From a virus (Duplodnaviria > Heunggongvirae > Uroviricota > Caudoviricetes): 35,076 nt of DNA. Below, piece after piece: positions 12,472-33,420 of the stretch. The notes under the pieces were generated by a model, which was given only the letters and a program-made list of their open reading frames with translations, was not told where the DNA came from and made no database searches. The stretch lies in IMG/VR virus record IMGVR_UViG_2606217118_000004; one strand, written 5' to 3'. A program made the translations under genes and the position numbers. The number at the start of each line of letters is the position of its first letter. Positions within the stretch are counted from its first letter, which is position 1.

Positions 12472-12490
12472 CTCGTATCCCCGCCACGCC
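12472..12490. other. cos-like site of the 186-like prophage (reverse complement GGCGTGGCGGGGATACGAG)
   Basis: First 13 nt GGCGTGGCGGGGA match the 186-type cohesive end as I recall it; located ~160 bp past the Q stop, where P2-family cos lies. Confidence 0.4.
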
Positions 12491-12696
12491 TGCCCGCTTT
12501 ATGTAGTGGTTTTCATGCGCCTGCATGACATAAGCAAAAGCCCGCCATTCCTGGCGGGCCTCAGCTAAAACGATCCTCAAACGATCATGCGGATTCATGC
12601 GGCATAGTCATGCAGCACAATTCCTTTGCCCCACTATATCCTTTGTGGCAGAAATTGAGGAAAATGATTCATAAATACTCATATTTCGGAGGATAT

Positions 12697-13596
12697 ATGG
12701 CAGTTCTATTTTTATTTGGCGCAGGTGCGAGTTTTGGCAGCGGTCCATGTAGTCCATCCAATCCACCTCTTGGTAAAGATCTGCTTATCCGCATGCGTGA
12801 AAAAGGTGGAGTTGCTTCAACTATTGATGGCGCTCTATTGGAGAGTTTCATTGCAGATCCTGAACAAGGAATGATTAATTTTTTCAATGAACGAAATTGC
12901 GAGACAACTCACCTCCTAAAGCAGATGTGCGCCTATCTTGCACAATTTCGGGTCGAGAAAGAAAACACCTACATAAAACTGTTTAACCTATTAAAAAAAA
13001 GAAAAAACATATGTATGGCAACAACTAATTACGACCTATTAATTGAACAAGCTATATGCTCTGTTGGCTGTCTTGTTCAATATCACTCATCGAAGCGCAA
13101 TAGAAATAACATACCGGTATTAAAAATACATGGCTCAGTAAACTTCATACCAGTTGCAAATATCGTTAATATCGATTTCGAATTACCTGATTGCGAGAAC
13201 TCTGCAATATTCGATGGTCCAATTGATATTTACAACGATGAGCAAGACGTGATTGCATACTGCGAAAGTGATTCTGCCCTCTCACCCGCAGTTGCATTAT
13301 ATCATCCCAAAAAAAGCGTATTGCACTGCCCCTCATTTGTTAAGTATCAGCAGGAAGAGTTTCGTTCTGAGGTTGAACGTTCATCCAAGATATTCATTAT
13401 TGGACTTAAAATAAATCCAAATGATGAGCATATTTGGTCTGAAATTGAAAAAACTTCAGCCGACGTCTACATAGTAGACAAGGATAAAGAATCTACTATC
13501 ACCTGGGTTAATAGCTTGAGCAAAAAGAACATTTACCACATAGCTGATACTTTTGATGAATCGATTGTGAGAATTAAAAACATTCTGCAATTATAG
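12697..13596 (+). CDS. Standalone SIR2-like (ThsA-type) NADase-domain protein; candidate anti-phage cargo in the cos-A hotspot
   Basis: ORF track 12610..13596; start placed at the Met with a GGAGG RBS (MAVLFLFGAGAS...). Ordered motifs GAGAS, TTNYDLLIE, KIHGS and IFIIGLKINPNDEHI follow the SIR2_2/ThsA pattern. Visibly AT-rich; opposite strand to flanking phage genes. Confidence 0.6.
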   Translation: MAVLFLFGAGASFGSGPCSPSNPPLGKDLLIRMREKGGVASTIDGALLESFIADPEQGMINFFNERNCETTHLLKQMCAYLAQFRVEKENTYIKLFNLLKKRKNICMATTNYDLLIEQAICSVGCLVQYHSSKRNRNNIPVLKIHGSVNFIPVANIVNIDFELPDCENSAIFDGPIDIYNDEQDVIAYCESDSALSPAVALYHPKKSVLHCPSFVKYQQEEFRSEVERSSKIFIIGLKINPNDEHIWSEIEKTSADVYIVDKDKESTITWVNSLSKKNIYHIADTFDESIVRIKNILQL

Positions 13597-13700
13597 ATAA
13601 CAAAACCATTATAAAGTACCAATGATGGGCTAACGCCTCGCCCCGCTCGTTGTTCAACCTTGCTGGCGTCAGTATCAAGTCCTGCCGCCAGCAACGTTCC

Positions 13701-14180: not shown

Positions 14181-14196
14181 CTGTTTATATATACAG
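14181..14196. promoter_or_regulatory. LexA (SOS) box CTGTTTATATATACAG
   Basis: Exact CTGT-N8-ACAG with an AT-only spacer, embedded in ACTGTTTATATATACAGTAT; a CTGT half-site lies just upstream at 14166-14169. Confidence 0.6.
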
Positions 14197-20353: not shown

Positions 20354-21394
20354 ATGACCATCAGAAAACAGCCGAACGGAAAATGGTTGTGTGAGTGCTA
20401 TCCCAATGGACGCAATGGTAAGCGCGTGCGTAAGCAATTTGCTACCAAAGGCGAAGCCATTGCGTTTGAAAGCTTCACAATGGAAGAAGTGAACAAAAAA
20501 CCATGGCTAGGGGAAAAGGAAGATCGGCGACATCTATCAGAATTAATTGAGCTGTGGTATTCCCTGTATGGTCAAACACTCGCAGACCCCAAGCGCCTCA
20601 TGGCGAAACTTAGAATTATCTGTAATGGTCTAGGCGATCCCATCGCCTCAGAACTGACAGCTGGTGAGTTTACGAAATACCGCGAAGCACGGTTAAAAGG
20701 TGAAGTACGAAATGAAGATGGCACGCTTATGTCGCCCGTTAAGCCCCGCACGGTAAATCTTGAACAGCGCAACCTATCATCTGTTTTTGGTACACTGAAA
20801 AAGCTGGGCCACTGGTCAGCCCCCAACCCGCTTGCTGGGCTGCCAACATTTAAAATTGCTGAGGGTGAATTGGCGTTCCTGACCCCGGAAGAAATTAAAC
20901 GTCTGCTGGATGCCTGTGCTGATTCTCAAAGCCCCAGTCTGCTGATGATTGCAAAAATATGCTTGGCCACCGGCGCACGCTGGAGCGAAGCCGAAAACTT
21001 ACAGAGTCATCAGGTATCAAAATACCGTATCACTTATACCAAGACTAAAGGAAAGAAAAACCGAACAGTGCCTATTTCAAAGGATTTATATGAAGAACTG
21101 CCTAAGAATAGGGGAAAATTATTTACACCTTGTAGGAAAGCTTTTGAACGTGCGGTTAAACGAGCTGGTATCGAGCTACCAGAAGGGCAATGCACACACG
21201 TATTACGACATACATTTGCAAGTCACTTTATGATGAATGGCGGAAACATACTGGTGCTGCGCGATATTCTGGGCCATGTCGATATAAAAATGACAATGAT
21301 TTACGCCCACTTCGCTCCCGACCATCTGGAAGATGCTGTAACCAAAAATCCTCTTGCTAACCTTGGATGGAGAAAATTAGAAAGTGCTTGTTAA
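20354..21394 (+). CDS. int: Tyrosine integrase (P2/186 type)
   Basis: 346 aa; C-terminal catalytic signature HVLRHTFAS ... LGH ... MIYAH. Confidence 0.85.
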   Translation: MTIRKQPNGKWLCECYPNGRNGKRVRKQFATKGEAIAFESFTMEEVNKKPWLGEKEDRRHLSELIELWYSLYGQTLADPKRLMAKLRIICNGLGDPIASELTAGEFTKYREARLKGEVRNEDGTLMSPVKPRTVNLEQRNLSSVFGTLKKLGHWSAPNPLAGLPTFKIAEGELAFLTPEEIKRLLDACADSQSPSLLMIAKICLATGARWSEAENLQSHQVSKYRITYTKTKGKKNRTVPISKDLYEELPKNRGKLFTPCRKAFERAVKRAGIELPEGQCTHVLRHTFASHFMMNGGNILVLRDILGHVDIKMTMIYAHFAPDHLEDAVTKNPLANLGWRKLESAC

Positions 21395-21500
21395 TAACTA
21401 TATCCAACAATACCCATGGATATCGTACTTACTTATCATAATATATTTTATATATATATGCCTTGAATTATATCTATGCGTATCAAAAAAAGGCTTTAAC

Positions 21501-22430
21501 ATGGATGAAAGGCCATTAACAAGTCAATACTTATTTAAACAATCACTTAGGATTCCTGTATTTTCAGCGATATACTTTGGTATATTTTCCTGGCTTGGAC
21601 ATTCCCCTCAATTTGATAGTGAGGGCTTTAATAATTTCATTGCAATTAGCAAGCTTCCTATCGCCTTACTTTCTTTGTCCATACCATTTGTTGCTGTCGT
21701 AGCAAACATACACCGCACAGTTCAAACAAACCGACAAATTGAGGAAACCAAGCAAAAGAATCTATCTGATAGCTACTATAGCCATCTAAAGTTCGTTACT
21801 GATTATTTCACCAATTTACCTAACAAAACCATTAAACGCGAACGTCATTATGGTACTAAAGAGATAAGTTATAAAATTAACTACCCAATACATCTATATA
21901 GATATATTTTCATAAATAGCTCACCAGAGAAGGGACGGCCTAAAAATACAGATAAAGAATACATACGTGAAGTAAATAATCACTGGGTTGATATACTAAA
22001 AAACCTAGAGAAGATAAATTCATCTAATCGTGGCTCTCAGTTTGACGAAGTTTTAATCCGTCAAATGCAATCTCTTCATTCAATAGAAAAACACTTATCC
22101 GAACTTAATCGAATGCTTTGCCTAACTCCCATGGAGTTAAATGAACATGCAACTTTATACTTTGATGGATATGAAATGATTACTAACTTCATGTCCAGCA
22201 TTGAACTTGGCGATACAATTGAAACCTACTTCAAATTTACCATTGATATTCTTGATATTACCGATAATTTCCTTTCATTCAAGGATGATGGCTCGTCTGG
22301 GCAAATCATTATACTAGCAAGATTACTGAAAGATAATAATCCAGCTATCTTTGATGAAATTGTAACAAACAAAGGGAAGGCTCAACCTTCGTTGACCTAC
22401 AATGGCGACAGATTGGCGACAGAGCATTAA
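21501..22430 (+). CDS. AT-rich hypothetical membrane-anchored protein; cargo gene between int and attR
   Basis: Track 21384..22430; the first 39 codons overlap int, so start placed at MDERPLTSQ. Two predicted transmembrane helices then a ~240-aa soluble domain; composition visibly AT-rich. Confidence 0.5.
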   Translation: MDERPLTSQYLFKQSLRIPVFSAIYFGIFSWLGHSPQFDSEGFNNFIAISKLPIALLSLSIPFVAVVANIHRTVQTNRQIEETKQKNLSDSYYSHLKFVTDYFTNLPNKTIKRERHYGTKEISYKINYPIHLYRYIFINSSPEKGRPKNTDKEYIREVNNHWVDILKNLEKINSSNRGSQFDEVLIRQMQSLHSIEKHLSELNRMLCLTPMELNEHATLYFDGYEMITNFMSSIELGDTIETYFKFTIDILDITDNFLSFKDDGSSGQIIILARLLKDNNPAIFDEIVTNKGKAQPSLTYNGDRLATEH

Positions 22431-22515
22431 AAATGAGTAAAACGGACAAACACAAGATAATACTAACTTGCTGATTTTAAACGCAAGTTAATGTTTTTGC
22501 TATAGTGAAAATGGT

Positions 22516-22560
22516 ATGTAGGAATTTCGGACGCGGGTTCAACTCCCGCCAGCTCCACCA
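22516..22560 (+). other. ssrA: 45-nt copy of the tmRNA (ssrA) 3' end ending in CCA; att core at the prophage/satellite junction
   Basis: ATGTAGGAATTTCGGACGCGGGTTCAACTCCCGCCAGCTCCACCA matches the E. coli ssrA 3' terminus as I recall it; sequence upstream of 22516 is not ssrA-like, so this is only the core fragment. Confidence 0.7.
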
Positions 22561-22595
22561 CTTGCTCTTCCGGATACGTCCGGAGAAATCCTGAA

Positions 22596-22629
22596 AGCCC
22601 GCATGGCACAAGCTTTGCGGGCTTTTTTG
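22596..22629 (+). terminator. Intrinsic terminator just downstream of the ssrA core copy
   Basis: AGCCCGCA...TGCGGGCT hairpin followed by TTTTTT. Confidence 0.45.
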
Positions 22630-22672
22630 TGTCTACCGTTGTCCGAGGATATCCAGCTAAATCCAGTGATTA

Positions 22673-22724
22673 TTGGTATACGTTTAGGTATACGGTAGGA
22701 TATATACCTAAACGCGTATACCAA
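22673..22724. repeat. Inverted repeat TTGGTATACGTTTAGGTATAC / ATACCTAAACGCGTATACCAA upstream of the satellite int; candidate integrase arm-type sites
   Basis: Near-perfect ~21-bp inverted arms between the att core and int; a third copy lies at 33323-33344 at the other end of the element. Confidence 0.35.
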
Positions 22725-22744
22725 TTCATGAAGGAGCGGCCAAA

Positions 22745-23938
22745 GTGGCAAGAACGACACGCCCCCTGACCAACACAGAGGTTCTGCGCGCTAAAGCGTT
22801 AGAAAAGGATCTAACGTTGCATGATGGCGATGGTCTTTTTCTGCTCGTTAAAACGAACGGTAAGAAGTTATGGCGTTTCCGTTATCAACGTCCAGCAACA
22901 AAGCAGCGAACAATGATGGGGCTAGGTGCCTTCCCCACCCTTTCACTTGCTGACGCCCGACGGTTAAGAGCGAATTACCTTTCCTTGTTAGCCAACGGAA
23001 TTGACCCGCAAATTCAAGCTGAAATTGCAGAGGAACAGCAGCAAATCGCACTGGACAGTATTTTTTCAACCGTCGCCGCTAACTGGTTCCAGCTTAAAAG
23101 CAAAAGCGTTACCCCTGATTACGCGAAAGACATTTGGCGTTCACTAGAAAAAGATGTATTCCCTGCCATCGGTGAGATCCCAGTTCAGCAAATCAAAGCC
23201 CGAATGCTTGTTGAAGCCCTAGAGCCTATCAAAGCACGTGGGGCGCTAGAGACGGTACGTCGTCTGGTGCAGCGTATTAATGAGATAATGATTTACGCCG
23301 TAAACACAGGTCTGATTGATGCCAATCCAGCATCAGGTATTGGGATGGCCTTTGAGAAACCTAAAAAGCAAAACATGCCTACGCTCCGGCCAGAAGAATT
23401 ACCGAAGCTGATGCGTTCTTTGATTATATCTAATCTGTCTGTTCCGACACGTTGTCTTATTGAGTGGCAACTACTGACCCTTGTACGCCCTTCTGAAGCC
23501 TCTGGTACTCGGTGGGCAGAGATCAATCTCGATGCAAAGCTCTGGACGATTCCAGCCGAACGGATGAAGGCCAAACGTGAGCACATTGTTCCTCTATCTC
23601 CTCAGGCATTAGAAATTCTGGAAGTGATGAAACCAATCAGTGCTCATCGTGAACATGTTTTTCCGAGCAGAAATGACCCTAAACTGCCAATGAATAGCCA
23701 GACTGCTAATGCAGCATTAAAACGTATTGGATATGGTGGAAAACTTGTCGCACATGGTATGCGTTCAATTGCCAGTACAGCGATGAACGAGGCAGGTTTA
23801 AATCCAGATGTGATTGAATCAGCATTGGCACATACCGATAGAAATGAAGTAAGAAAAGCATACAATCGCACCACCTATCTGCCACAGCGAATAACACTTA
23901 TGAATTGGTGGGGAGATTTTGTAAGGAACCTTAAATAA
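22745..23938 (+). CDS. int: P4/CP4-57-type tyrosine integrase
   Basis: 397 aa; located ~185 bp downstream of the ssrA 3' end, the arrangement I recall for intA of CP4-57. Confidence 0.85.
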   Translation: MARTTRPLTNTEVLRAKALEKDLTLHDGDGLFLLVKTNGKKLWRFRYQRPATKQRTMMGLGAFPTLSLADARRLRANYLSLLANGIDPQIQAEIAEEQQQIALDSIFSTVAANWFQLKSKSVTPDYAKDIWRSLEKDVFPAIGEIPVQQIKARMLVEALEPIKARGALETVRRLVQRINEIMIYAVNTGLIDANPASGIGMAFEKPKKQNMPTLRPEELPKLMRSLIISNLSVPTRCLIEWQLLTLVRPSEASGTRWAEINLDAKLWTIPAERMKAKREHIVPLSPQALEILEVMKPISAHREHVFPSRNDPKLPMNSQTANAALKRIGYGGKLVAHGMRSIASTAMNEAGLNPDVIESALAHTDRNEVRKAYNRTTYLPQRITLMNWWGDFVRNLK

Positions 23939-23986
23939 TATATATTCATCTAATTAGCGCCCTTATCAAGTTAGGGCGCGATTAAC

Positions 23987-24490
23987 TTAAAGAAGTTTCA
24001 TTGTTTTCATTGTATCTTTAAAATCCTTAAATCCATCAAATAAAATGATGAAATTTGCTAGCGTCACCGATGGAGCATCAATAGTCATACTAGTACCTTT
24101 TATAAAGGTATGAGCGGCAGCATTTCTTGGGGTCTTGAGTGATGTCAAAGTGGCTTTTAATGTAAAAAGTTTTTGTTGTGTTGCTTGTTTTTCAATTTTT
24201 TCAATTGAGCTCAATCCTATAACTTGGGCTAACATTTTTTTAAAATTGTCCTCATAATGGAAATTATAATTCCGTTTTATTTCATTTTGGATTTTTTTTA
24301 TGTGTTCAGGGTTAGTTATATTTTTTTTACAAACTCCTTCAATTATGTTATCCATGGTTACCTCTATCCATCCGCACAACTCCATAAGAGCAAGCTTAGA
24401 ATAAAACAACTGTTTTTTAGGATCGGTTTCCTTAGTAAAGAGGCGATCTAACTCTTTCAATGTTTTATGAATTGTCCCCTTAACTATCAT
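23987..24490 (-). CDS. HEPN-domain protein (predicted RNase), second gene of the hotspot operon
   Basis: Track 23987..24502 begins at a TTG; the ATG at 24490 lies 4 nt after the DUF262 stop. Candidate Rx4H HEPN motif in ...TPRNAAAHTF...; AT-rich. Confidence 0.55.
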   Translation of the reverse strand: MIVKGTIHKTLKELDRLFTKETDPKKQLFYSKLALMELCGWIEVTMDNIIEGVCKKNITNPEHIKKIQNEIKRNYNFHYEDNFKKMLAQVIGLSSIEKIEKQATQQKLFTLKATLTSLKTPRNAAAHTFIKGTSMTIDAPSVTLANFIILFDGFKDFKDTMKTMKLL

Positions 24491-24494
24491 GATT

Positions 24495-25589
24495 TCACCC
24501 AAATATTCTTAGAGCGGCATCTAACCTTGCGTCAACTTTTTCCTTACTGGCTACACCACCGCTCAGAAAAGCCGTTGATAATGAATTATCTGCCCTTAAA
24601 TCATCAAAACGCTGGCTTAAACTAGCGCTAGTTTCTTGCTCTAAAAGATCAATATTTTTTGCTACACCATATAAAAGGGCTTCCATTAAAGAACTACCAA
24701 GTCTCATTGGATTGGGTTGTAATATTTTATTCCACACCAGACCTACGGTCCTCTTAAATAAATCCTCTTTTAGAGCTATATCTGACTTTCCTAAATGACG
24801 GTTTTTCTTCATATAGCCATTGAGAAATTTAGATAAAGTGCCTTTATACTTATCTTTGTTATCGTAAAATGAGAAAAATCGCAAGATAAGTTCGATATAC
24901 TTAAACCTATTCGAATTCTTGGTATTCAAGCCAGCTATTTTTTGCCACTCATCAATTTCATTCATTTCTTTGAGGGCATTATTAAACTCACCGCTAAAAA
25001 TACAATTCCTAATTTCTTGGTTATTAAGTCTTGTGCCTCCAGAATTCAACCGATGAAATATAGTAAACAAATACTCCATATGTGATAGTTTAGAATGATC
25101 ACATCTAAGCACAGTGACTGGAATTGTTAAGTTTTGCACTCTCTTATAAAAATTATTCAATTCAGTCTTTTGTTTATGAAACTCTGATACACGAACACCA
25201 GATATTTTACTATCAATATCATCGAGCTTAGACAGTTGCCAGCTTGGGTCAGATAAAAATCTGATTATTGACGTCATTCGCTGCAACCCATCAATTACCT
25301 GCCATTCCTGACTATTATAATCAAAACTAAAACACATGCTAGGAATAGGAAGCTGTTTAATTAAGGAGTCAATAAATCGTGTTTGAGCTGATGAATTCCA
25401 TACAATGTCTCTTTGAAAATCTGGTTGAATATTCAAAGTTCCTTCATTGTACATGCGAACTAAATCAGAGCAGGATCTCAACTCATTATAGGCAATCACA
25501 TCACTTGGCGGATGTTGCTCACTATCATCTTCATAATAAGATTCATCTTCTAAATTCTCAATATCTTCAAGAGTAATGTCAGCAGTCAT
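24495..25589 (-). CDS. DUF262 (ParB-like NTPase domain) protein, first gene of the hotspot operon
   Basis: Track 24495..25622; start placed at MTADITLEDIE (GGAG RBS with 5-nt spacer). DUF262 signature motifs QPDFQRDIVW, VIDGLQR and FHRLNSGG; no HNH/DUF1524-like nuclease motif seen. Confidence 0.65.
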   Translation of the reverse strand: MTADITLEDIENLEDESYYEDDSEQHPPSDVIAYNELRSCSDLVRMYNEGTLNIQPDFQRDIVWNSSAQTRFIDSLIKQLPIPSMCFSFDYNSQEWQVIDGLQRMTSIIRFLSDPSWQLSKLDDIDSKISGVRVSEFHKQKTELNNFYKRVQNLTIPVTVLRCDHSKLSHMEYLFTIFHRLNSGGTRLNNQEIRNCIFSGEFNNALKEMNEIDEWQKIAGLNTKNSNRFKYIELILRFFSFYDNKDKYKGTLSKFLNGYMKKNRHLGKSDIALKEDLFKRTVGLVWNKILQPNPMRLGSSLMEALLYGVAKNIDLLEQETSASLSQRFDDLRADNSLSTAFLSGGVASKEKVDARLDAALRIFG

Positions 25590-25906
25590 ATAATCTCCAA
25601 TATGAAATTTAAAAAAGCTCATCTATCCTTTAGATGAGCAAATAGAACTTCCTTTCATCTGCAACTCGATAATATTTAACTATCGCCTTGCAAACTCCCA
25701 CTAATTTTAGCGGCATTGTTACCCTGGTTCAATTAATTATTTCCCCCCCCATTTGCTGCACTTTCACTGAGCATCGCCCCCAACACAAAAAGCCCAAACA
25801 AAAGCGTATGAAAAAATGAGGCTTTCAAGCAAAATTATAGCTTGAGTTTGTTCATCCAAAAGCGACTTCGCATGTATTAGAAAATTCAGCATATACATTG
25901 CGCGCA

Positions 25907-25925
25907 GTGCTTTCCCCGCCTCGCC
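25907..25925. other. Satellite cos site (reverse complement GGCGAGGCGGGGAAAGCAC)
   Basis: Exact 19-nt match to the P2/P4 cohesive-end sequence as I recall it; lies between the hotspot cargo and psu. Confidence 0.7.
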
Positions 25926-26089
25926 CGCCCGCTTTGCGGGGCGGGTTTAATGCAGTTTCACTGACACGCTCAGGCCGCGCCGGGAATGGCGCGGTCTGCA
26001 GAAAATGAGGCAGGAAAACGCATGCAAAGCCATGCACCTTATCGATGCATGGCTTTTTTCAGTAAAAACGGGCGGATTTTCGGGGAGTT

Positions 26090-26662
26090 TTACACAGACT
26101 GATGTGATGCCAGTTGCGCACTTTTACGCGAAAAAATCATGTTCTGCGCAGGAGTGAATTTTTCACGGCTGTCATCCACCGAAGCCGCGTCAGGCCTGAA
26201 TCCGATGGCCGTTAAAATGTCGCTATCCTGTGCGGAATAATTAATTTTTTCCCCCTTCGCAAGCCAGGACAGAAGGGCTTCACGCAGGGCATCTGTGGCA
26301 CACTGTATGGCACAGTTTCGGGCAATGGCCGTCAGTTCACTGTAGCCCATCAGCTCCGGTGCCAGTGCGGCCGCCAGTACTGTGCCGTGCTGCTGCATAA
26401 AATCATTCAGCCGGTCGCGGATGCTGATGTGCTGAACGGCTTCATGCGAACGAATATAACGACCGGCGGCCTGATTCACCTGCCATTTTCTGACTTCGAT
26501 AATATTGCGTAATTCGTCCAGGCGACTGACGTTTCTGCCTTCTCCTGACAGAAGCCGCAGATATTCCTGTTCGGCCGCAGCCAGCTCATTTTTGCGTTGC
26601 AGCCATGCTGCTTTGTTATTCTGACAGGTGTCAAAGGCCTGCTGTAAGGCAGTGCTTTCCAT
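26090..26662 (-). CDS. psu: Polarity suppression protein Psu
   Basis: 190 aa, the P4 Psu size; last gene of the psu-delta-sid operon, adjacent to cos. Confidence 0.8.
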   Translation of the reverse strand: MESTALQQAFDTCQNNKAAWLQRKNELAAAEQEYLRLLSGEGRNVSRLDELRNIIEVRKWQVNQAAGRYIRSHEAVQHISIRDRLNDFMQQHGTVLAAALAPELMGYSELTAIARNCAIQCATDALREALLSWLAKGEKINYSAQDSDILTAIGFRPDAASVDDSREKFTPAQNMIFSRKSAQLASHQSV

Positions 26663-26735
26663 CGTTATCTCTTTCTCATCATGCTGAAGAATAAAAATAC
26701 GGTGTGCGGCGACGGCCGGGGTTAACCGGCAGCCC

Positions 26736-27236
26736 TCATTCCAGACGCAGCGAATATGATTGTGTTTTTAAGCGTACTGGCGGCAGTTCCTGTTTTTCAT
26801 GCAGGCTTTCTGCCAGTTCGTCCGGCGTGACCGGGCGGACAATAAAACGGTTGATGGTCTGAAGCGTTTTAAACACCAGACCACAGCCCGGATCCGTGCA
26901 CACATAAAAACGCTCGGTGACTTCCTGAGACAGACGCCGCGATGTTCTTGACAGTGCAAGGCCTTTACATCTCCGACAACAATATCCGGTAACAAGCATT
27001 CTTTTCTGGCGTTTCATACTGCCGGAGGCTGACGTCAGTGAATCGCGGTATCTCTGTTTGCCTGAAATGTATTCCATTCCTGAATCTTTACAGTCAGAGA
27101 AAAAGCTTTCACTCGCTTCAAATGTCGCAGAGCAATAAATATTCCGGCACTGTGCAATCATTATCTTGGTGCCATCGTCCATGAAATGTGCGCGACGGGT
27201 GTGAGCAACATGTCCACACGACGGGCAGTAAATCAT
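26736..27236 (-). CDS. delta: Delta late transcription activator (tandem Ogr-type zinc fingers)
   Basis: 166 aa; two Ogr-like cysteine clusters (MIYCPSCGH...QCRNIYC and YCCRRCKG...CTDPGCG). Confidence 0.8.
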   Translation of the reverse strand: MIYCPSCGHVAHTRRAHFMDDGTKIMIAQCRNIYCSATFEASESFFSDCKDSGMEYISGKQRYRDSLTSASGSMKRQKRMLVTGYCCRRCKGLALSRTSRRLSQEVTERFYVCTDPGCGLVFKTLQTINRFIVRPVTPDELAESLHEKQELPPVRLKTQSYSLRLE

Positions 27237-27967
27237 GACAGCAGTCCTCTGGCCTTAAGCTCTGCACCCTGCTGGTCTATTTTGTCCTGCCACACCTTGC
27301 GCTGTGCCGGTGTGCCTGCCACCTCATAATCCATGTGCGGGAGTGTTGCCGCTGACAGTCCGGTCAGCCGGAGAACCGGCTCGCCGGTGAGGCTGATTTG
27401 CATCTGTTTAATTTTCTGTTCCAGCGATGATTTCACCTGCTGCATGACAGCCTTTTCCGGTGCGACGTAGCCCTGATGGCCGGTGGTGTTGGCGAGCGGA
27501 TTTTCCTGTACCAGAATGCTCAGATGCATTGCCCGGACAAGCGCCTCACAGGTTTCATTCAGGGCGTGTTCCAGCTCATGCTCTGCATACAGACTCAGAA
27601 GGTGATAATGTGCCTTCCGGTAGGCGGTGGCCGTGCTGTCACACGCCCCTTTCAGGCGTTCACGTTCGAAATTCAGCACCACGGCCAGATTGTCATATTC
27701 CTGTACCAGCTCCCGGCGTGCCACGCGCTCAATGTGGCGCTGTTTCAGCTCGTCGCTCAGGACACCACCGGCTGCACGAAAGGCCGTGCGCCAGTCGTCA
27801 GCGTCGTTTCCGTCGGCCTGCGTCAGCGCATTTTTTTCCTGCTCTGCCCGTTCAATGGCCGTGACGGTCTCATCCATCAGGCGGGCGTTCTCAAGGTGGG
27901 CGGCTCTGGCCTTTTCCAGTTGTGCCAGTGCGGGTTGCAGATATTCAGGGATGGTGTTGTCAGACAT
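27233..27967 (-). CDS. sid: Capsid size determination protein Sid
   Basis: Track 27233..28033; the internal ATG at 27967 (MSDNTIPEY...) has a GAGGAG RBS and gives 244 aa, the P4 Sid size. Confidence 0.75.
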   Translation of the reverse strand: MSDNTIPEYLQPALAQLEKARAAHLENARLMDETVTAIERAEQEKNALTQADGNDADDWRTAFRAAGGVLSDELKQRHIERVARRELVQEYDNLAVVLNFERERLKGACDSTATAYRKAHYHLLSLYAEHELEHALNETCEALVRAMHLSILVQENPLANTTGHQGYVAPEKAVMQQVKSSLEQKIKQMQISLTGEPVLRLTGLSAATLPHMDYEVAGTPAQRKVWQDKIDQQGAELKARGLLS

Positions 27968-28039
27968 TTTCCGGCTCCTCGTCACTTCAGGTTGAGAAAA
28001 TTGTGACGTACACCGGACAGCAACACGACGCATTGCAGA

Positions 28040-28057
28040 TGTGCCAGCCCTGACACA
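28040..28057. promoter_or_regulatory. TGT-N12-ACA dyad (TGTGCCAGCCCTGACACA), candidate Delta/Ogr site of the sid late promoter
   Basis: Dyad lies ~80 bp upstream of the sid start, consistent with a -55 activator site. Confidence 0.45.
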
Positions 28058-28136
28058 GGAGACTCATCCTCAGACCGGCAAGCCAGGAAAAGGTCGCAGG
28101 AAAAACCGGCTTACTGTTTGTTTTTTTATATTTTAC

Positions 28137-28240
28137 TGTTCACCTCTGTTCACCTTAAGAAAAAAGATAAGTAATACAGTAAGTTAAAGGGTGAACAATC
28201 GCAGTAATGACTGTTCACCGTCTGTTCACCACTGTTCACC
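28137..28240. repeat. Cluster of six TGTTCACC octamer iterons (one inverted); candidate satellite ori
   Basis: Octamers at about 28137, 28147, 28190 (inverted), 28212, 28223 and 28233; the same octamer recurs in the crr repeats after alpha. Confidence 0.55.
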
Positions 28241-28566
28241 CGTTGATGGGCTTTTTGTGCTGTTTATTACTTTTTATTTTTATTAATTCACTGAAATAAA
28301 TAAGAAAAAACAATTTGTATTTCACTATAATTTTTTCCAGCTCCTTCCAGAGCGTTTTAAAGCTATCTGGCGCTAATGTACAAAAAATACACAGCCATTG
28401 TAAGGCTGCCGGAACAAATCCCCCCTGTTGCGTCTGCTGAAAATATTCACAAAATAAAGCGCTACCCGAAGCCGGACGGACTTATCCGGTGCTGTATGGA
28501 CATTAACGAGGTAGCCCGATGCAAGCTGTTTTTTCTTCCCCGTCTCCCGCCCCTGTGACGCCACTG

Positions 28567-28785
28567 ATGCCGCTGCCGGACATCACACAGGAGCGTTTTT
28601 TACGTCTTCCGGAAGTGATGCACCTGTGCGGCCTGTCACGCTCGACCATCTATGAACTCATCCGTAAGGGGGAATTTCCGCCGCAGGTGAGTCTTGGCGG
28701 TAAAAATGTGGCCTGGCTGCACTCTGAAGTCACTGCATGGATGGCCGGGCGCATTGCCGGACGCAAACGGGGGTACGACGCATGA
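28567..28785 (+). CDS. alpA: AlpA-family helix-turn-helix regulator (excisionase-like)
   Basis: Track 28519..28785; ...[51 protein letters not shown] is typical of AlpA-type proteins. Confidence 0.7.
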
Positions 28786-28878
28786 TGATGCCCGCTCTGC
28801 AAAAACTCCCTTTTTCTGGCTTGCCTTTTTCCGGCATTTGCGGATATAGTTTTTCCGCTGCCGCAAAATCGGCAGCCG

Positions 28879-29173
28879 GGCGTGAGAACCCGAGCAATCT
28901 AACGGCGACATATGACGCGCCATGCGTCTTTTTTTGTGTCGCAATCAACGCCACAGAGCGCCAGATTATGGTGTGGTGTGTGGTCAGTCGTGCAGATGGC
29001 ATTCCGTGCATCCTGCCCGCGTCCGCTCATTATGCCGCAGAGTCAATGGTAGCTCAGGCGGGGCAGCCTCCGGGCTGGCCGGTATCCGTTAGAGCCGGTA
29101 TTCTCACCCCCGTCTGGGCTATCGCCATCGAGCGTGAGAACTCCGGCGATAGCGTAACCTGCTATCTAACGGA
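28879..29173 (+). ncRNA. Candidate P4-type RNA immunity region: direct repeats (seqA/seqC-like) flanking a complementary segment (seqB/CI-RNA-like)
   Basis: GCGTGAGAAC...ATCTAACGG occurs at ~28879-28904 and ~29133-29173, and CCGTTAGAG...TTCTCAC at ~29086-29108 is largely complementary to them. The long ORF over this region looks spurious. Confidence 0.3.
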
Positions 29174-29183
29174 GGCTGCCATC

Positions 29184-29381
29184 ATGGCTACAACCCTTAC
29201 CCCCTCACACCCTGAATTTGTCTTTGTGTTTGCGGCTGTCCGTCGCGCAGACCGTCATCCCCGTATCTGTATGCTTCGCACCGTCGCCGGTGATGAACGC
29301 AGCGCCCGCCGTTCCCTTGTCCGTGACTATGTGCTCTCCCTTGCTGCCCGTCTGCCGGTGGTGGAGGTGTCCCGTGCGTAA
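29184..29381 (+). CDS. Small hypothetical protein of the satellite early operon (65 aa)
   Basis: ATG with a GGAGG RBS ([12 protein letters not shown]...). The ORF track extends this frame to 28737, but that upstream part has no start signal and covers the RNA-repeat region. Confidence 0.45.
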
Positions 29382-29661
29382 TAAAAAAGCCCCTCAGACC
29401 GTCTCAGCGCGTCATGACGCCCGTGAACACCTCAGCATTGAGGCTTACCATAAGCTCAACCGCGCCAGCGCCGTATCCCAGTTTGTTGGGGGTGATTTGA
29501 TTCACCGTGAACTCTCCGGCCTGCATCAGCTCTACATTCCGCATATTTTCAGCTACCTGAATGAAGATATTGATTTTGTGCTGAATGAGCTGAAAGCCAA
29601 AGGCCTGTGCCGCGATTTTCTCGCCCAGCAGAAAGACCGGGGAGACAGGACGCATGTTTGA
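29374..29661 (+). CDS. Small hypothetical early protein (~95 aa), possibly the epsilon-position gene
   Basis: GTG start with GGAGG 6 nt upstream, overlapping the previous stop; the track lists a longer version from 29218. Epsilon assignment is by position only. Confidence 0.35.
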
Positions 29662-30109
29662 TTTTCCCCAGCCCGGTGAGATTTACCGTTCTGCCGGTTT
29701 TCCCGATGTGGCCGTGGTCGGCATTCTGGAAGACGGTATTCCGTGGGAAATGCCGTACCGCTGTCCGGAAATTGTCTGGAACCCGTACCGCCGAAAATTC
29801 AGTATCCTTGTGCGTATCCTCACTGACGGGCGCACCACAGACATCCCGCTGGGGCGTTTTCTGCGGGAATTTACCTGTGACCGTCCTGACCTGTTCAGAC
29901 GCAGCCCCGTAAACCGGCATGCGGTACTGAAAGAAATGGCCGGAGACCCGGAATTACAGAAATGGCGGGAGAAATATCTGGATATTTACCCGCAGGACAC
30001 TGTTCCGGCCAGCCGGGCGGCACCGGTGGCGCGGGAATGGCGGGAAATTCCCCGCACGGAGCCTGACCCGGAAATCACCCCGGATAACAGTTACCGCAAT
30101 TATCTGTAA
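29654..30109 (+). CDS. Hypothetical early protein (151 aa)
   Basis: Overlaps the preceding ORF end by 8 nt; length matches the orf151 I recall in P4 upstream of alpha. Confidence 0.5.
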   Translation: MFDFPQPGEIYRSAGFPDVAVVGILEDGIPWEMPYRCPEIVWNPYRRKFSILVRILTDGRTTDIPLGRFLREFTCDRPDLFRRSPVNRHAVLKEMAGDPELQKWREKYLDIYPQDTVPASRAAPVAREWREIPRTEPDPEITPDNSYRNYL

Positions 30110-30244
30110 TTAAAAAACGACACCCGAAAAATTAAATGTGCGTATTCGCGCAGGGATACGCACGTCTTCAGGAGACGCAGATATGCCTTATCAGTTAATG
30201 CAACCGGCACGGAATGCAGTCATCTGTCACAGGGAGGAAAACAA

Positions 30245-30565
30245 ATGAAAACACCCTTACCGCCCGTCTTACGCGCTGCCCTTTACCGTCGCGCTGTCGC
30301 CTGTGCCTGGCTGACCGTGTGCGAACGTCAGCACCGCTACCCGCATCTCACCCTTGAATCACTGGAGGCGGCCATCGCCGCTGAGCTGGAGGGCTTTTAT
30401 CTGCGCCAGCACGGTGAGGAAAAAGGGCGTCAGATAGCCTGTGCCCTGCTGGAAGATTTAATGGAATCCGGCCCCCTGAAGGCCGCGCCGTCGCTGTCCT
30501 TTCTCGGGCTGGTTGTGATGGATGAACTCTGTGCCCGTCACATAAAAGCGCCGGTACTGCACTGA
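30245..30565 (+). CDS. Hypothetical early protein (106 aa)
   Basis: ORF immediately upstream of alpha. Confidence 0.5.
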
Positions 30566-30579
30566 AGGAGAACAACACC

Positions 30580-32913
30580 ATGAAAATGAACGTAACCGCC
30601 ACCGTCAGCCATGCGCTCGGCCACTGGCCGCGTATTCTCCCGGCGCTGGGGATTCAGGTGCTGAAGAACCGTCATCAGCCCTGTCCGGTCTGTGGCGGGA
30701 GTGACCGTTTCCGTTTTGATGACAGGGAGGGGCGCGGCACCTGGTACTGCAATCAGTGTGGTGCCGGTGACGGCCTGAAACTGGTTGAAAAGGTGTTTGG
30801 TGTTTCCCCGTCCGACGCGGCCACAAAGGTGGCAGCCGTGACCGGCAGCCTGCCCCCGGCTGACCCGGTAGTGACGGCTGCCGCCGGTGCTGAAACAGAC
30901 GCTGCCCGGAAGAACGCCGCCGCACTGGCACAAACCCTGATGGCGAAAACCCGTCCCGGAACCGGTAACGCCTACCTGACCCGCAAGGGCTTTCCCGGCC
31001 GGGAATGCCGGATGCTGACCGGCACACACAGAGCCGGTGGCGTGAGCTGGCGTGCCGGTGACCTTGTGGTGCCACTGTATGACGACAGCGGCGAACTGGT
31101 TAACCTTCAGTTAATCAGTGCTGACGGCCGTAAGCGCACCCTGAAAGGCGGACAGGTCAGGGGCACCTGTCACACCCTTGAAGGACAGAATCAGGCCGGG
31201 AAACGTCTGTGGATAGCGGAGGGATACGCGACCGCACTTACCGTGCATCACCTGACCGGTGAAACGGTGATGGTGGCGCTTTCTTCCGTGAATCTCCTTT
31301 CTCTGGCCAGCCTTGCCCGGCAGAAGCATCCGGCCTGTCAGATTGTCCTTGCTGCTGACCGTGACCTCAGCGGTGACGGCCAGAAAAAAGCCGCCGCAGC
31401 CGCAGATGCGTGTGAAGGTGTTGTTGCCCTGCCGCCGGTCTTCGGTGACTGGAATGATGCCTTCACGCAGTACGGCGGGGAAGCCACCCGTAAGGCCATT
31501 TATGATGCCATCCGGCCACCGGCTGAAAGCCCGTTCGACACCATGAGCGAAGCGGAGTTTTCCGCCATGAGTACCAGCGAAAAGGCCATGCGTATCTATG
31601 AGCATTACGGCGAGGCGCTCGCGGTCGATGCCAACGGCCAGCTTCTGTCCCGCTATGAAAATGGTGTCTGGAAGGTGCTGCCGCCACAGGACTTTGCCCG
31701 GGATGTGGCCGGGCTGTTTCAGCGTCTGCGCGCGCCGTTCTCCTCCGGGAAGGTGGCCTCCGTGGTGGACACCCTGAAGCTGATTATTCCGCAGCAGGAA
31801 GCCCCCTCCCGCCGCCTGATTGGCTTTCGTAACGGCGTGCTCGACACGCAGAACGGCACGTTCCACCCGCACAGTCCGTCACACTGGATGCGCACCCTGT
31901 GCGATGTGGATTTCACCCCGCCGGTGGACGGTGAAACGCTGGAGACCCACGCCCCCGCGTTCTGGCGCTGGCTTGACCGTGCCGCCGGTGGCCGTGCGGA
32001 AAAACGCGACGTGATTCTGGCCGCACTGTTTATGGTGCTGGCAAACCGCTACGACTGGCAGCTCTTTCTGGAGGTGACCGGTCCCGGCGGCAGCGGCAAA
32101 AGTATCATGGCCGAAATAGCCACCCTGCTGGCCGGGGAGGATAACGCCACGTCGGCCACCATCGAGACGCTGGAATCCCCGCGTGAACGTGCCGCGTTAA
32201 CTGGCTTCTCACTGATACGCCTGCCGGACCAGGAAAAATGGAGCGGCGACGGTGCCGGACTCAAGGCCATCACCGGCGGCGATGCGGTGTCCGTTGACCC
32301 GAAATACCGGGATGCATACTCCACGCATATCCCGGCGGTGATTCTGGCCGTGAACAATAACCCGATGCGCTTCACCGACCGCAGCGGCGGCGTGTCACGC
32401 CGGCGGGGGATTATTCACTTCCCGGAACAGATAGCCCCGCAGGAGCGCGACCCGCAGCTTAAGGACAAAATCACCCGCGAGCTGGCGGTCATCGTGCGTC
32501 ACCTGATGCAGAAGTTCAGCGACCCGATGCTCGCCCGGTCACTGCTTCAGTCCCAGCAGAACTCAGACGAGGCGCTGAACATCAAACGGGATGCCGACCC
32601 GACGTTTGATTTTATCGGCTATCTGGAAACCCTGCCGCAGACCAGCGGCATGTATATGGGGAACGCCAGTATCATCCCGCGTAATTACCGTAAATACCTC
32701 TATCACGCCTATCTGGCCTACATGGAGGCAAACGGCTACCGGAATGTACTCAGTCTGAAAATGTTCGGGCTGGGGCTGCCGGTGATGCTGAAGGAATACG
32801 GACTGAATTACGAGAAGCGCCATACCAAACAGGGGATACAGACCAACCTGACACTGAAAGAGGAAAGCTACGGCGACTGGCTGCCAAAATGTGACGACCC
32901 TGCAACAGCCTGA
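30580..32913 (+). CDS. alpha: Alpha primase-helicase (replication protein)
   Basis: 777 aa, the P4 alpha size; N-terminal zinc-binding motif CPVCGG...CNQCG, Walker A GPGGSGKS in the C-terminal half. Confidence 0.9.
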   Translation: MKMNVTATVSHALGHWPRILPALGIQVLKNRHQPCPVCGGSDRFRFDDREGRGTWYCNQCGAGDGLKLVEKVFGVSPSDAATKVAAVTGSLPPADPVVTAAAGAETDAARKNAAALAQTLMAKTRPGTGNAYLTRKGFPGRECRMLTGTHRAGGVSWRAGDLVVPLYDDSGELVNLQLISADGRKRTLKGGQVRGTCHTLEGQNQAGKRLWIAEGYATALTVHHLTGETVMVALSSVNLLSLASLARQKHPACQIVLAADRDLSGDGQKKAAAAADACEGVVALPPVFGDWNDAFTQYGGEATRKAIYDAIRPPAESPFDTMSEAEFSAMSTSEKAMRIYEHYGEALAVDANGQLLSRYENGVWKVLPPQDFARDVAGLFQRLRAPFSSGKVASVVDTLKLIIPQQEAPSRRLIGFRNGVLDTQNGTFHPHSPSHWMRTLCDVDFTPPVDGETLETHAPAFWRWLDRAAGGRAEKRDVILAALFMVLANRYDWQLFLEVTGPGGSGKSIMAEIATLLAGEDNATSATIETLESPRERAALTGFSLIRLPDQEKWSGDGAGLKAITGGDAVSVDPKYRDAYSTHIPAVILAVNNNPMRFTDRSGGVSRRRGIIHFPEQIAPQERDPQLKDKITRELAVIVRHLMQKFSDPMLARSLLQSQQNSDEALNIKRDADPTFDFIGYLETLPQTSGMYMGNASIIPRNYRKYLYHAYLAYMEANGYRNVLSLKMFGLGLPVMLKEYGLNYEKRHTKQGIQTNLTLKEESYGDWLPKCDDPATA

Positions 32914-32920
32914 CCCACCT

Positions 32921-32946
32921 GACCGGCATCTGCCGGTCTTTTTTTA
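32921..32946 (+). terminator. Intrinsic terminator after alpha
   Basis: GACCGGCA-TC-TGCCGGTC hairpin followed by seven T residues. Confidence 0.5.
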
Positions 32947-32960
32947 TCCCTGAATTCCCC

Positions 32961-33264
32961 GAAGGTGAACAATCCACTGTTCACCCTTCACCGTATATTC
33001 ACCCGTTATCACACTGAAATTAAAAGAGAAAAACGAAAGGTGAACAGTGTGAACAATCAAATCAAAAAAAACTTTTTTCTCCCTGTGTGATTTCAGCACG
33101 GGGGATTAATCACCGGTATGAGTCACACCGGCAGAATGCCGGAGGTGAAGAATCGAATGTTCACCCTTCACCCATTATTCACCACCTATCCAACTGAAAT
33201 AAAAGGAGAAAACAGAAAGGTGAACAGTGTGAACAGTTCTTTCGAAAAAAAATTTTTTTCCTGT
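32961..33264. repeat. crr-like cis replication region: two ~125-bp direct repeats carrying TGTTCACC/GGTGAACA octamers
   Basis: Repeat 1 ~32961-33086 and repeat 2 ~33141-33264 share long blocks (GGTGAA..TGTTCACCCTTCACC..ACTGAAAT.AAAAG.GAAAA..GAAAGGTGAACAGTGTGAACA) and lie directly after alpha as in P4. Confidence 0.7.
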
Positions 33265-33322
33265 ACGATATAGCATCAATCCAAGTAAAAATGCGCTTTC
33301 ATTTCACATTAACTTACAGCTA

Positions 33323-33344
33323 TTGGTATACGATTAGGTATACG
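33323..33344. repeat. Third copy of the TTGGTATACG-N-TTAGGTATACG motif; candidate integrase arm-type site at the right end of the satellite
   Basis: TTGGTATACGATTAGGTATACG closely resembles the repeat at 22673-22694. Confidence 0.3.
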
Positions 33345-33397
33345 TACAAAAACTGAATTAAACAAAATCATTAAAAATCAAAGCAATACAATATTTA

Positions 33398-33420
33398 TTC
33401 AAACTCCGCCAGCCCAATCA
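33398..33420 (+). other. Degenerate att-core-like sequence; tentative right boundary of the satellite
   Basis: TTCAAACTCCGCCAGCCCAATCA matches 17 of 23 ungapped positions of the ssrA core 3' end and lies just past crr and the arm-type repeat. Confidence 0.3.

Follow-up and report, generated by a model that had tools for sequence, protein, structure and literature searches.

The window analysed here, the 35,076-nucleotide virus record IMGVR_UViG_2606217118_000004 of IMG/VR at its full length, contains a prophage of the 186 type (CI repressor, CII/CP76, Fil, a DinI-like gene and Dam) and, within this prophage, a gene for a small protein with a SIR2 fold, which is referred to below as the SIR2-like protein. 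The gene occupies window 12697-13596 on the plus strand and encodes 299 amino acids followed by a stop codon. It stands in the order terminase gene P (+), portal gene Q (+), cos-like sequence, SIR2-like gene (+), DinI-family gene (-), gene of a 62-amino-acid hypothetical protein (-) and replication gene A (-). The original prediction, which was made from the letters of this region, had described the gene as lying on the strand opposite to all neighbouring phage genes. This applies to the DinI-like gene, the gene of the 62-amino-acid protein and A, but not to the upstream terminase and portal genes, which are encoded on the same (plus) strand. The slot between gpQ and gpA is a hotspot of the P2 family which houses old, tin and further validated systems (Rousset et al., 2022; PMC9122126), and the portal/cos-to-A slot of the window matches this published P2-like hotspot, as had been proposed. 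The SIR2-like gene lies between portal/cos and A, with flanks that are common to related prophages and cargo that varies among them.

The program-made list of open reading frames (ORFs) gives a longer frame for this gene (window 12610-13596, plus strand; 328 amino acids). Its start, ATG 12610, was rejected, as it lies within phage flank that is common to prophages with other cargo. PGAP places the start of the identical protein WP_148996919.1 from E. coli 22AR0750 at ATG 12697, which is also kept in all six aligned alleles. A Shine-Dalgarno sequence, GGAGG (12688-12692, plus strand; read from the sequence), precedes it by 4 nt and is found in five of the six alleles, with GGGGG in the allele of locus L014. 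The PGAP start, the conservation of GGAGG and ATG, and the position of ATG 12610 in the shared flank together identify ATG 12697 as the true start, and the resulting 299 amino acids fit the size of about 300 that had been expected. The low G + C content which had been noticed by eye was also found by calculation: the gene has 0.378 and the cassette that carries it 0.390, as compared to 0.527 for the rest of the prophage.

A single SIR2 fold with a conserved putative active site

One SIR2 fold fills the whole protein. The AlphaFold2 model is a single compact domain (predicted local distance difference test score, pLDDT, 95.2; predicted template modelling score, pTM, 0.92), in which the fold spans residues 3-299 and the chain ends inside the fold. 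It consists of a Rossmann-type large domain with an inserted small domain and can be superposed on solved sirtuins; 247 of the 299 residues superpose on PsSIR2. A Foldseek comparison of the model with the SIR2 subunit of E. coli SIR2-HerA (8sub) gave an E-value of 2e-10. Together with the family-level matches to SIR2_2 described below, this superposition confirms the SIR2 identity that the original prediction had assigned, and the single-domain model likewise agrees with its statement that no sensor domain is attached.

At the level of sequence the relationship is weaker. The SIR2-like protein scores 23.8 bits (E 5e-5) against Pfam SIR2_2 (PF13289), over residues 107-149 only, and thereby stays 0.7 bits short of the gathering cut-off of 24.5. 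SIR2_2 does, however, match 103 of 114 homologues at E<=0.01, and many homologues carry a precomputed PF13289 match. The Pfam family SIR2 (PF02146) matched neither the protein nor its family. The four-Cys zinc module of sirtuin deacylases is also absent, as cysteine is conserved at positions 18 and 189 alone and the protein from the window has Val at position 148. A single-sequence search of PDB sequences yielded nothing significant, so that the SIR2 relatives became visible only in profile and structure searches. The family itself is large. A word-indexed search returned 187 homologues, those listed being essentially all of about 300 amino acids, and an exhaustive profile search returned 3,677 proteins at E<=1e-3, 1,255 at E<=1e-10 and 674 clusters at E<=1e-30. 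The best 150 family representatives are nearly all 290-330 amino acids long and match end to end.

The four motifs named in the original prediction were all found, in the canonical order of a GAGxS loop, a putative catalytic Asn (and Asp) and a putative catalytic His. GAGAS (residues 8-12; 12718-12732, plus strand, as are the following motifs) forms, according to the alignment and the model, the Rossmann dinucleotide-binding loop after strand beta-1, and the model shows a strand (E3-7) directly before it. TTNYD (residues 109-113; 13021-13035) includes the putative catalytic Asn111 and Asp113, and KIHGS (residues 143-147; 13123-13137) the putative catalytic His145, both by alignment to PsSIR2. 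The C-terminal Rossmann strand-loop motif IGLKINPNDEHIW (residues 235-247; 13399-13437), also identified by alignment, may bind the adenosine side of nicotinamide adenine dinucleotide (NAD), as would be expected from the SIR2 fold. In the profile-to-PDB alignment TTNYDLLiEqa pairs with TTNYDLLMEQA of PsSIR2, and KIHGS pairs with KLHGS. N111, D113 and H145 thereby align with N163, D165 and H212, which are regarded as the putative catalytic residues of PsSIR2 (PMC11472057).

Among the 114 aligned homologues 18 columns are invariant, including G8, G10, A11, S12, Y112, K143, S147, G236, D243, H245 and W247. N111 is kept in 113 of the 114 homologues, Y112 in all of them, D113 in 112 and H145 in 113, and I246 of IGLKINPNDEHIW is kept in 97% of the sequences. 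This conservation argues against a chance occurrence of the motifs, and the putative catalytic Asn and His, whose loss in a proper alignment would have spoken against the assignment, are both intact. In a search for a hypervariable patch, variability was spread over the blocks 121-140, 161-180, 221-230 and 271-299, and no single sensor patch can be claimed.

Searches of annotated collections place the protein next to known SIR2 systems without assigning it to one of them. NCBIfam gave no match, PHROGs only a weak match to the unannotated phrog_2695, and BFVD only canonical viral sirtuins with a template modelling (TM) score of about 0.5. With PADLOC, 70 of the 114 members weakly match models named 'SIR2', with best E-values of 1.3e-5 for the SIR2-like protein and 8e-8 family-wide, all of these matches being partial. 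We presume that these 'SIR2' models represent the SIR2 subunit of GAO_19 SIR2/HerA, judging from the presentation of PADLOC output in PMC11514479. Only one or two of the 114 members match ThsA models, and the match of the SIR2-like protein itself (E 0.0056) covers the SIR2 part only. The parallel to ThsA drawn in the original prediction is thus not borne out in that form: the SLOG domain and the ThsB partner which define ThsA are missing as well, and by these sequence matches ThsA is not the closest relative. No model of PADLOC v2, NCBIfam or the annotated PHROGs covers the family, and current defence annotators therefore pass over it.

A cassette exchanged between prophages

Comparison of prophages delimits a mobile cassette at window 12611-13700, which comprises the SIR2-like gene together with 86 bp upstream and 104 bp downstream of it. 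In E. coli A38 this cassette is 99.8-100% identical, whereas the flanking portal end and the DinI-like, hypothetical and A genes are only 74-96% identical. In prophages with other alleles or other cargo, homology is lost at about 12603-12614 and regained at about 13686. A near-identical cassette amid diverged flanks, with homology breaking at its edges, indicates that the gene travels as a single-gene module of 1.09 kb. The interval 12491-13700 given in the original prediction is accordingly to be divided: 12611-13700 is the discrete cassette, but 12491-12610 is conserved cos-proximal phage flank.

Alleles with 71%, 51% and 42% identity occupy the same Q-to-DinI slot in 186-like prophages of Enterobacter and E. 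coli, usually as sole cargo. In two Enterobacter prophages (L004:3276-5885 and L005:172-2544) the hotspot contains further cargo besides the SIR2-family gene, consisting in one of them of a DUF4325 protein, a 355-amino-acid protein and an insertion sequence (DDE_Tnp_1) and in the other of three unannotated genes; this suggests that the slot can stack several cassettes. Further relatives were found in Vibrio, after the integrase at the end of a P2-like prophage, and in Pseudomonas, after the integrase of a P4-like element, and 30 IMG/VR viral contigs encode relatives as well. The carriers of the family include P2-like, P4-like and lambdoid elements, and the neighbours of distant relatives, some of which are placed in other temperate phages between the lysis genes and Nu1/small terminase, are lysis genes, Nu1/small terminase genes, UmuDC-like genes, integrases and an Acb2/Tad1-hairpin protein. 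The latter is an 85-amino-acid protein encoded directly downstream of a distant SIR2-family relative in three metagenomic phages (L035:7072-7326, L036:6364-6618 and L040:7006-7260). The three copies cluster together, for the L035 copy a match to the Acb2/Tad1 hairpin domain of anti-CBASS and anti-Thoeris sponges was obtained (E 1.3e-10), and in the aggregate neighbour scan three ORFs match the Acb2/Tad1-hairpin Pfam family.

As far as the compared loci show, no partner gene accompanies the family. In about 40 loci, drawn from E. coli, Enterobacter, Vibrio, Pseudomonas and metagenomic phages, no neighbouring gene was conserved, and no DUF87/HerA gene was found beside the SIR2-like gene or its relatives. 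Clustering of 133 neighbour ORFs from 25 loci yielded no family present in more than six related loci, and the 25 most frequent Pfam families in a set of 111 neighbour ORFs did not include a TIR family. The cassette does not offer room for a second gene either. The lack of a partner stated in the original prediction is confirmed by the absence of a neighbour family common to the loci.

The gene is under purifying selection. The ratio of non-synonymous to synonymous substitution rates (dN/dS) is 0.11-0.14 in comparisons with unsaturated synonymous sites, and the frame of 299 codons is intact in all alleles. At the same time the gene is rare, as its allele group was found in 4 of 5,426 complete E. 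coli genomes. A tblastn search against 50,697 sequenced phage records returned no relative and a search of plasmids only two weak matches; the relatives that were found come only from prophage-derived and metagenomic viral contigs.

Possible function of the SIR2-like protein

All documented bacterial antiphage SIR2 proteins belong to the 'sirim' clade and not to the sirtuin clade (bioRxiv 10.1101/2024.09.18.613514), and the closest structures of the SIR2-like protein are SIR2 subunits of SIR2-HerA (GAO_19/Nezha; PDB 8w9l, 8yhx, 8j4u and 8sub). These subunits, however, comprise 360-428 amino acids, so that the protein from the window with its 299 is about 60-130 residues shorter, and it is only 14-18% identical to them. 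The E-values against the PADLOC models of this system, 1e-5 to 8e-8, are so weak that both do not belong to the same family. In SIR2-HerA, a dodecameric ring assembly with a HerA-binding helix, an adjacent, usually overlapping gene encodes HerA (DUF87), whereas the single-gene cassette of the prophage is not followed by one. The SIR2 subunit of SIR2-HerA on its own is autoinhibited by its small domain and requires HerA (PMC11472057).

Other SIR2 systems differ in similar ways. ThsA of type I Thoeris (PDB 6lhx, 7uxt and 8bto) has a C-terminal SLOG/STALD (or Macro) domain which is missing here, and a ThsB/TIR gene adjoins it, whereas the neighbours here are portal/cos and the DinI-like gene. DSR1 and DSR2 resemble the SIR2-like protein in that one gene encodes a SIR2 effector with no partner in an operon, but they have a large C-terminal sensor and a total length of about 1,000 amino acids. 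Sole-Sir2 is likewise a single-protein SIR2; it has about 440 amino acids, though, its SIR2 domain being C-terminal and DSR2-like and an additional substructure being present at the N-terminus. NADase activity was reported for sole-Sir2, as was protection against T2 and T4 by a homologue (bioRxiv 10.1101/2024.12.27.630466). KomC of Kongming (PDB 8zsf and 9v0g) is a small filament-forming SIR2 which, unlike the protein studied here, works with adjacent KomA and KomB, and human FAM118B (9r0p) is a small filament-forming SIR2 from a vertebrate. KomC and FAM118B are both bare SIR2 domains that are regulated through filament assembly.

As cargo, the SIR2-like gene resembles old, tin, DUF4238 and DprA-PRTase of the gpQ-gpA hotspot of P2, which occupy the same cos-adjacent slot as compact, exchangeable cassettes of low G + C content (PMC9122126). 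Rousset et al. (2022; PMC9122126) record a SIR2 domain among P2-hotspot cargo, and neither WP_148996919.1 nor the 70%-identical E. coli allele was found in the part of their tables that was searched. Of the eight additional P2-hotspot systems in that study, three are reported as protective, and none of these three is a SIR2 gene. The single SIR2 gene that was cloned there, pFR88, originates from P4, is longer and is unrelated to the SIR2-like protein.

The protein is best explained as a self-contained member of the defence-type SIR2_2 ('SIRim') branch that is carried as an accessory cassette. More specifically, it could be an autonomous, autoinhibited NAD+-depleting abortive-infection protein by which the lysogen is defended against superinfection, a reading that in our estimation has about an even chance of being correct. 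In this scheme the lysogen would produce the protein in inactive form, with its own small domain (residues ~26-100 and ~150-210) closing the NAD+ pocket in the manner of the SIR2 subunit of SIR2-HerA. An incoming phage product would then bind the protein or alter its oligomeric state, whereupon the pocket formed by GAGAS, N111/D113 and H145 would hydrolyse NAD+ to ADP-ribose and nicotinamide, and the loss of NAD+ would stop replication of the phage. It is a tentative further idea, with slightly less than an even chance, that the bare 299-residue SIR2 domain constitutes a complete immune system in which the small domain is both lock and phage sensor, possibly by way of trigger-induced assembly.

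Several observations weigh against NAD+-depleting defence by a single domain. Sensing in the characterised SIR2 systems is performed by SLOG, HerA, pAgo, STAND, the C-terminal domain of DSR proteins or KomAB; to our knowledge every characterised SIR2 defence protein has such a sensor domain or a partner, and we know of no direct precedent for a domain of 299 amino acids which would both sense and kill. Similarity to validated defence SIR2 proteins is weak, the best profile match to a PDB sequence having an E-value of 9e-4 and the best PADLOC matches E-values of 1.2e-5 for the SIR2-like protein and 3e-9 family-wide (candidate model PDC-S25). The searchable literature yielded no paper on the family and no experiment on any of its members, and a search for stand-alone, small or single SIR2 systems and for PDC-S21/S25 returned only sole-Sir2. 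A promoter scan upstream of the gene found no sigma-70 consensus, so that its expression in the lysogen is an assumption. pFR88, a different single SIR2 gene from the P4 hotspot, appears in Rousset et al. (2022) only with the further systems that were tested and not with the validated ones. Finally, a predicted fold alone cannot tell hydrolysis of NAD+ from ADP-ribosyl transfer or deacylation.

As an alternative, the protein could use NAD+ to modify a specific target, as an ADP-ribosyltransferase or deacylase acting on a protein or nucleic acid of phage or host, in defence or in lysogenic conversion but without bulk loss of NAD+. SirTM, for example, is an ADP-ribosyltransferase. We regard this alternative as rather unlikely, given that SIR2_2 and not PF02146 is matched, that the motif reads TTNYD, that the four-Cys zinc module is missing and that the nearest structures, the SIR2 subunits of SIR2-HerA, are described as NADases. 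The same structural neighbours, which presumably also account for the most frequent PADLOC matches of the family, would fit with an orphan effector subunit whose activation depends on a partner from another locus, be it a HerA-like ATPase or a conserved protein of the host or of a helper phage, all the more as the SIR2 subunit of SIR2-HerA is autoinhibited without HerA (PMC11472057). Yet no DUF87/HerA or other gene family recurs beside the gene in the loci compared, the cassette transfers alone between prophages, and alignment offsets suggest that SIR2-HerA subunits carry about 50 or more extra residues before the Asn motif. Dependence on such a remote partner thus appears very unlikely.

A role outside of anti-phage defence, either as an addiction toxin that stabilises the prophage or as a tool with which the phage acts on NAD+ metabolism or immunity of the host during its own cycle, seems quite unlikely too. 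It is true that the P2 hotspot also holds partition systems and a cytolethal distending toxin (Rousset et al., 2022; PMC9122126), and the Acb2/Tad1-hairpin neighbour at three distant phage loci demonstrates that genes for defence and for counter-defence occur together in slots of this kind. The cassette, however, contains no conserved ORF of antitoxin size and an Rfam scan of it revealed no RNA element, the SIR2_2-type branch is strongly tied to immunity (bioRxiv 10.1101/2024.09.18.613514), and the relatives found come only from prophage-derived and metagenomic viral contigs, with none in the sequenced phage records. That the gene is a decaying or non-functional remnant in which motifs persist by chance might be read from its rarity in E. 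coli and from the narrowly missed Pfam gathering score. This idea is effectively refuted by the invariant columns, by the size of the family with its conserved length and by the dN/dS of 0.11-0.14, to which the intact frame of all alleles and the very high confidence of the structure model can be added.

The preferred reading, an autonomous NAD+-depleting defence protein, would belong to a known kind, as SIR2-domain immunity and defence cargo of the P2 hotspot are both established, and bacterial immunity repeatedly employs SIR2 NADases as effectors. The architecture 'SIR2 fold only', by contrast, differs from that of every characterised SIR2 defence protein, and a new principle would follow only if the single domain senses phage by itself. 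Should the bare domain indeed be a complete immune system, it would represent an uncatalogued family of several hundred sequence clusters in slots next to cos or attachment sites of P2-like, P4-like and lambdoid elements, and the smallest known NAD+-depleting defence protein. The question raised is how one domain can be silent in the lysogen and yet responsive to infection. Answering it would show what the smallest regulatory unit of SIR2 immunity is and would bear on small eukaryotic 'sirim' proteins such as FAM118, and the small size of the protein makes it an easy experimental system. If the protein has no defence activity, its gene would simply add to the uncharacterised accessory genes of a known hotspot.

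Flanking signals and other variable slots of the window

Upstream of the cassette, the minus-strand sequence GGCGTGGCGGGGATACGAG (12472-12490) resembles the P2 cos region and exactly matches the flank of a further P2-like hotspot clone. Both sequences are printed in Table S2 of Rousset et al., and by this similarity GGCGTGGCGGGGATACGAG is assigned as a putative cos. Between this sequence and the cassette, in the conserved flank, lies a terminator-like hairpin on the minus strand (12537-12566), GCCCGCCAGGAAUGGCGGGC followed by UUUUGCUU, with a folding energy of -26.5 kcal/mol and a z-score of -3.6. A second strong hairpin (13659-13697; -31.2 kcal/mol, z -3.9 on the plus and -2.9 on the minus strand) is located between the convergent SIR2-like and DinI-like genes. 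It has no U-tract and was not called by a scan for consensus terminators.

A perfect LexA-box consensus, CTGTTTATATATACAG, the sole one in the window, lies at 14181-14196 in the intergenic region upstream of the operon of the 62-amino-acid protein and the DinI-like gene. Its occurrence could be due to chance, as at least one such box was present in 36 of 100 shuffles. The operon is transcribed toward the 3' end of the SIR2-like gene with no clear intrinsic terminator between them. Minus-strand transcripts which pass the DinI-like gene would therefore run antisense through the SIR2-like gene up to the hairpin at 12537-12566, provided that this hairpin is functional. As the operon is transcribed toward the gene and the next terminator-like hairpin on the minus strand is found only at 12537-12566, one may speculate that SOS-induced antisense transcription silences the SIR2-like gene during induction of its own prophage. 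In two other 186-like prophages (L003:3840-4565 and L010:3950-4657) an extra Terminase_6N ORF of about 235-241 amino acids, which is about 32% identical to part of the terminase, is inserted between the large terminase and portal genes; an ORF of this kind is absent from the window.

Colinearity of the window with strain 22AR0750 ends at position 21352, and a composition check and BLAST identified 21353-33397 as extra DNA. Most of it belongs to a complete P4-like satellite (22516-33400) in tandem with the prophage, in agreement with the co-resident satellite that had been predicted and which maps to about 22.5-33.4 kb of the window. The satellite is 100% identical in E. coli E7, APEC17 and other strains but absent from 22AR0750, which has the same prophage. 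It encodes an integrase (22745-23938, plus strand), psu (26090-26662, minus strand), delta (26736-27236, minus strand), sid (27233-28033, minus strand) and a primase-helicase (30580-32913, plus strand), as well as Icd-like and derepression genes.

The int-psu hotspot of the satellite holds a two-gene cargo of low G + C content (0.33-0.38; window 23987-25622, minus strand), which consists of a gene for a DUF262/GmrSD_N protein (24495-25622, minus strand; Pfam E 4e-25) and a gene for a RiboL-PSP HEPN protein (23987-24502, minus strand; Pfam E 2.5e-7). With this pair the window appears to hold another candidate defence module besides the SIR2-like gene. A third variable slot is located between the prophage integrase and the satellite and contains an ORF of 348 amino acids (21384-22430, plus strand; G + C content about 0.33-0.36), for which no Pfam match was obtained and whose first 222 amino acids weakly match the PADLOC model '2TM effector' (E 8.7e-5). 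In strain 2020N21-246 the same slot is occupied by an annotated anti-phage dCTP deaminase, and in 22AR0750 by a hypothetical protein of 222 amino acids.

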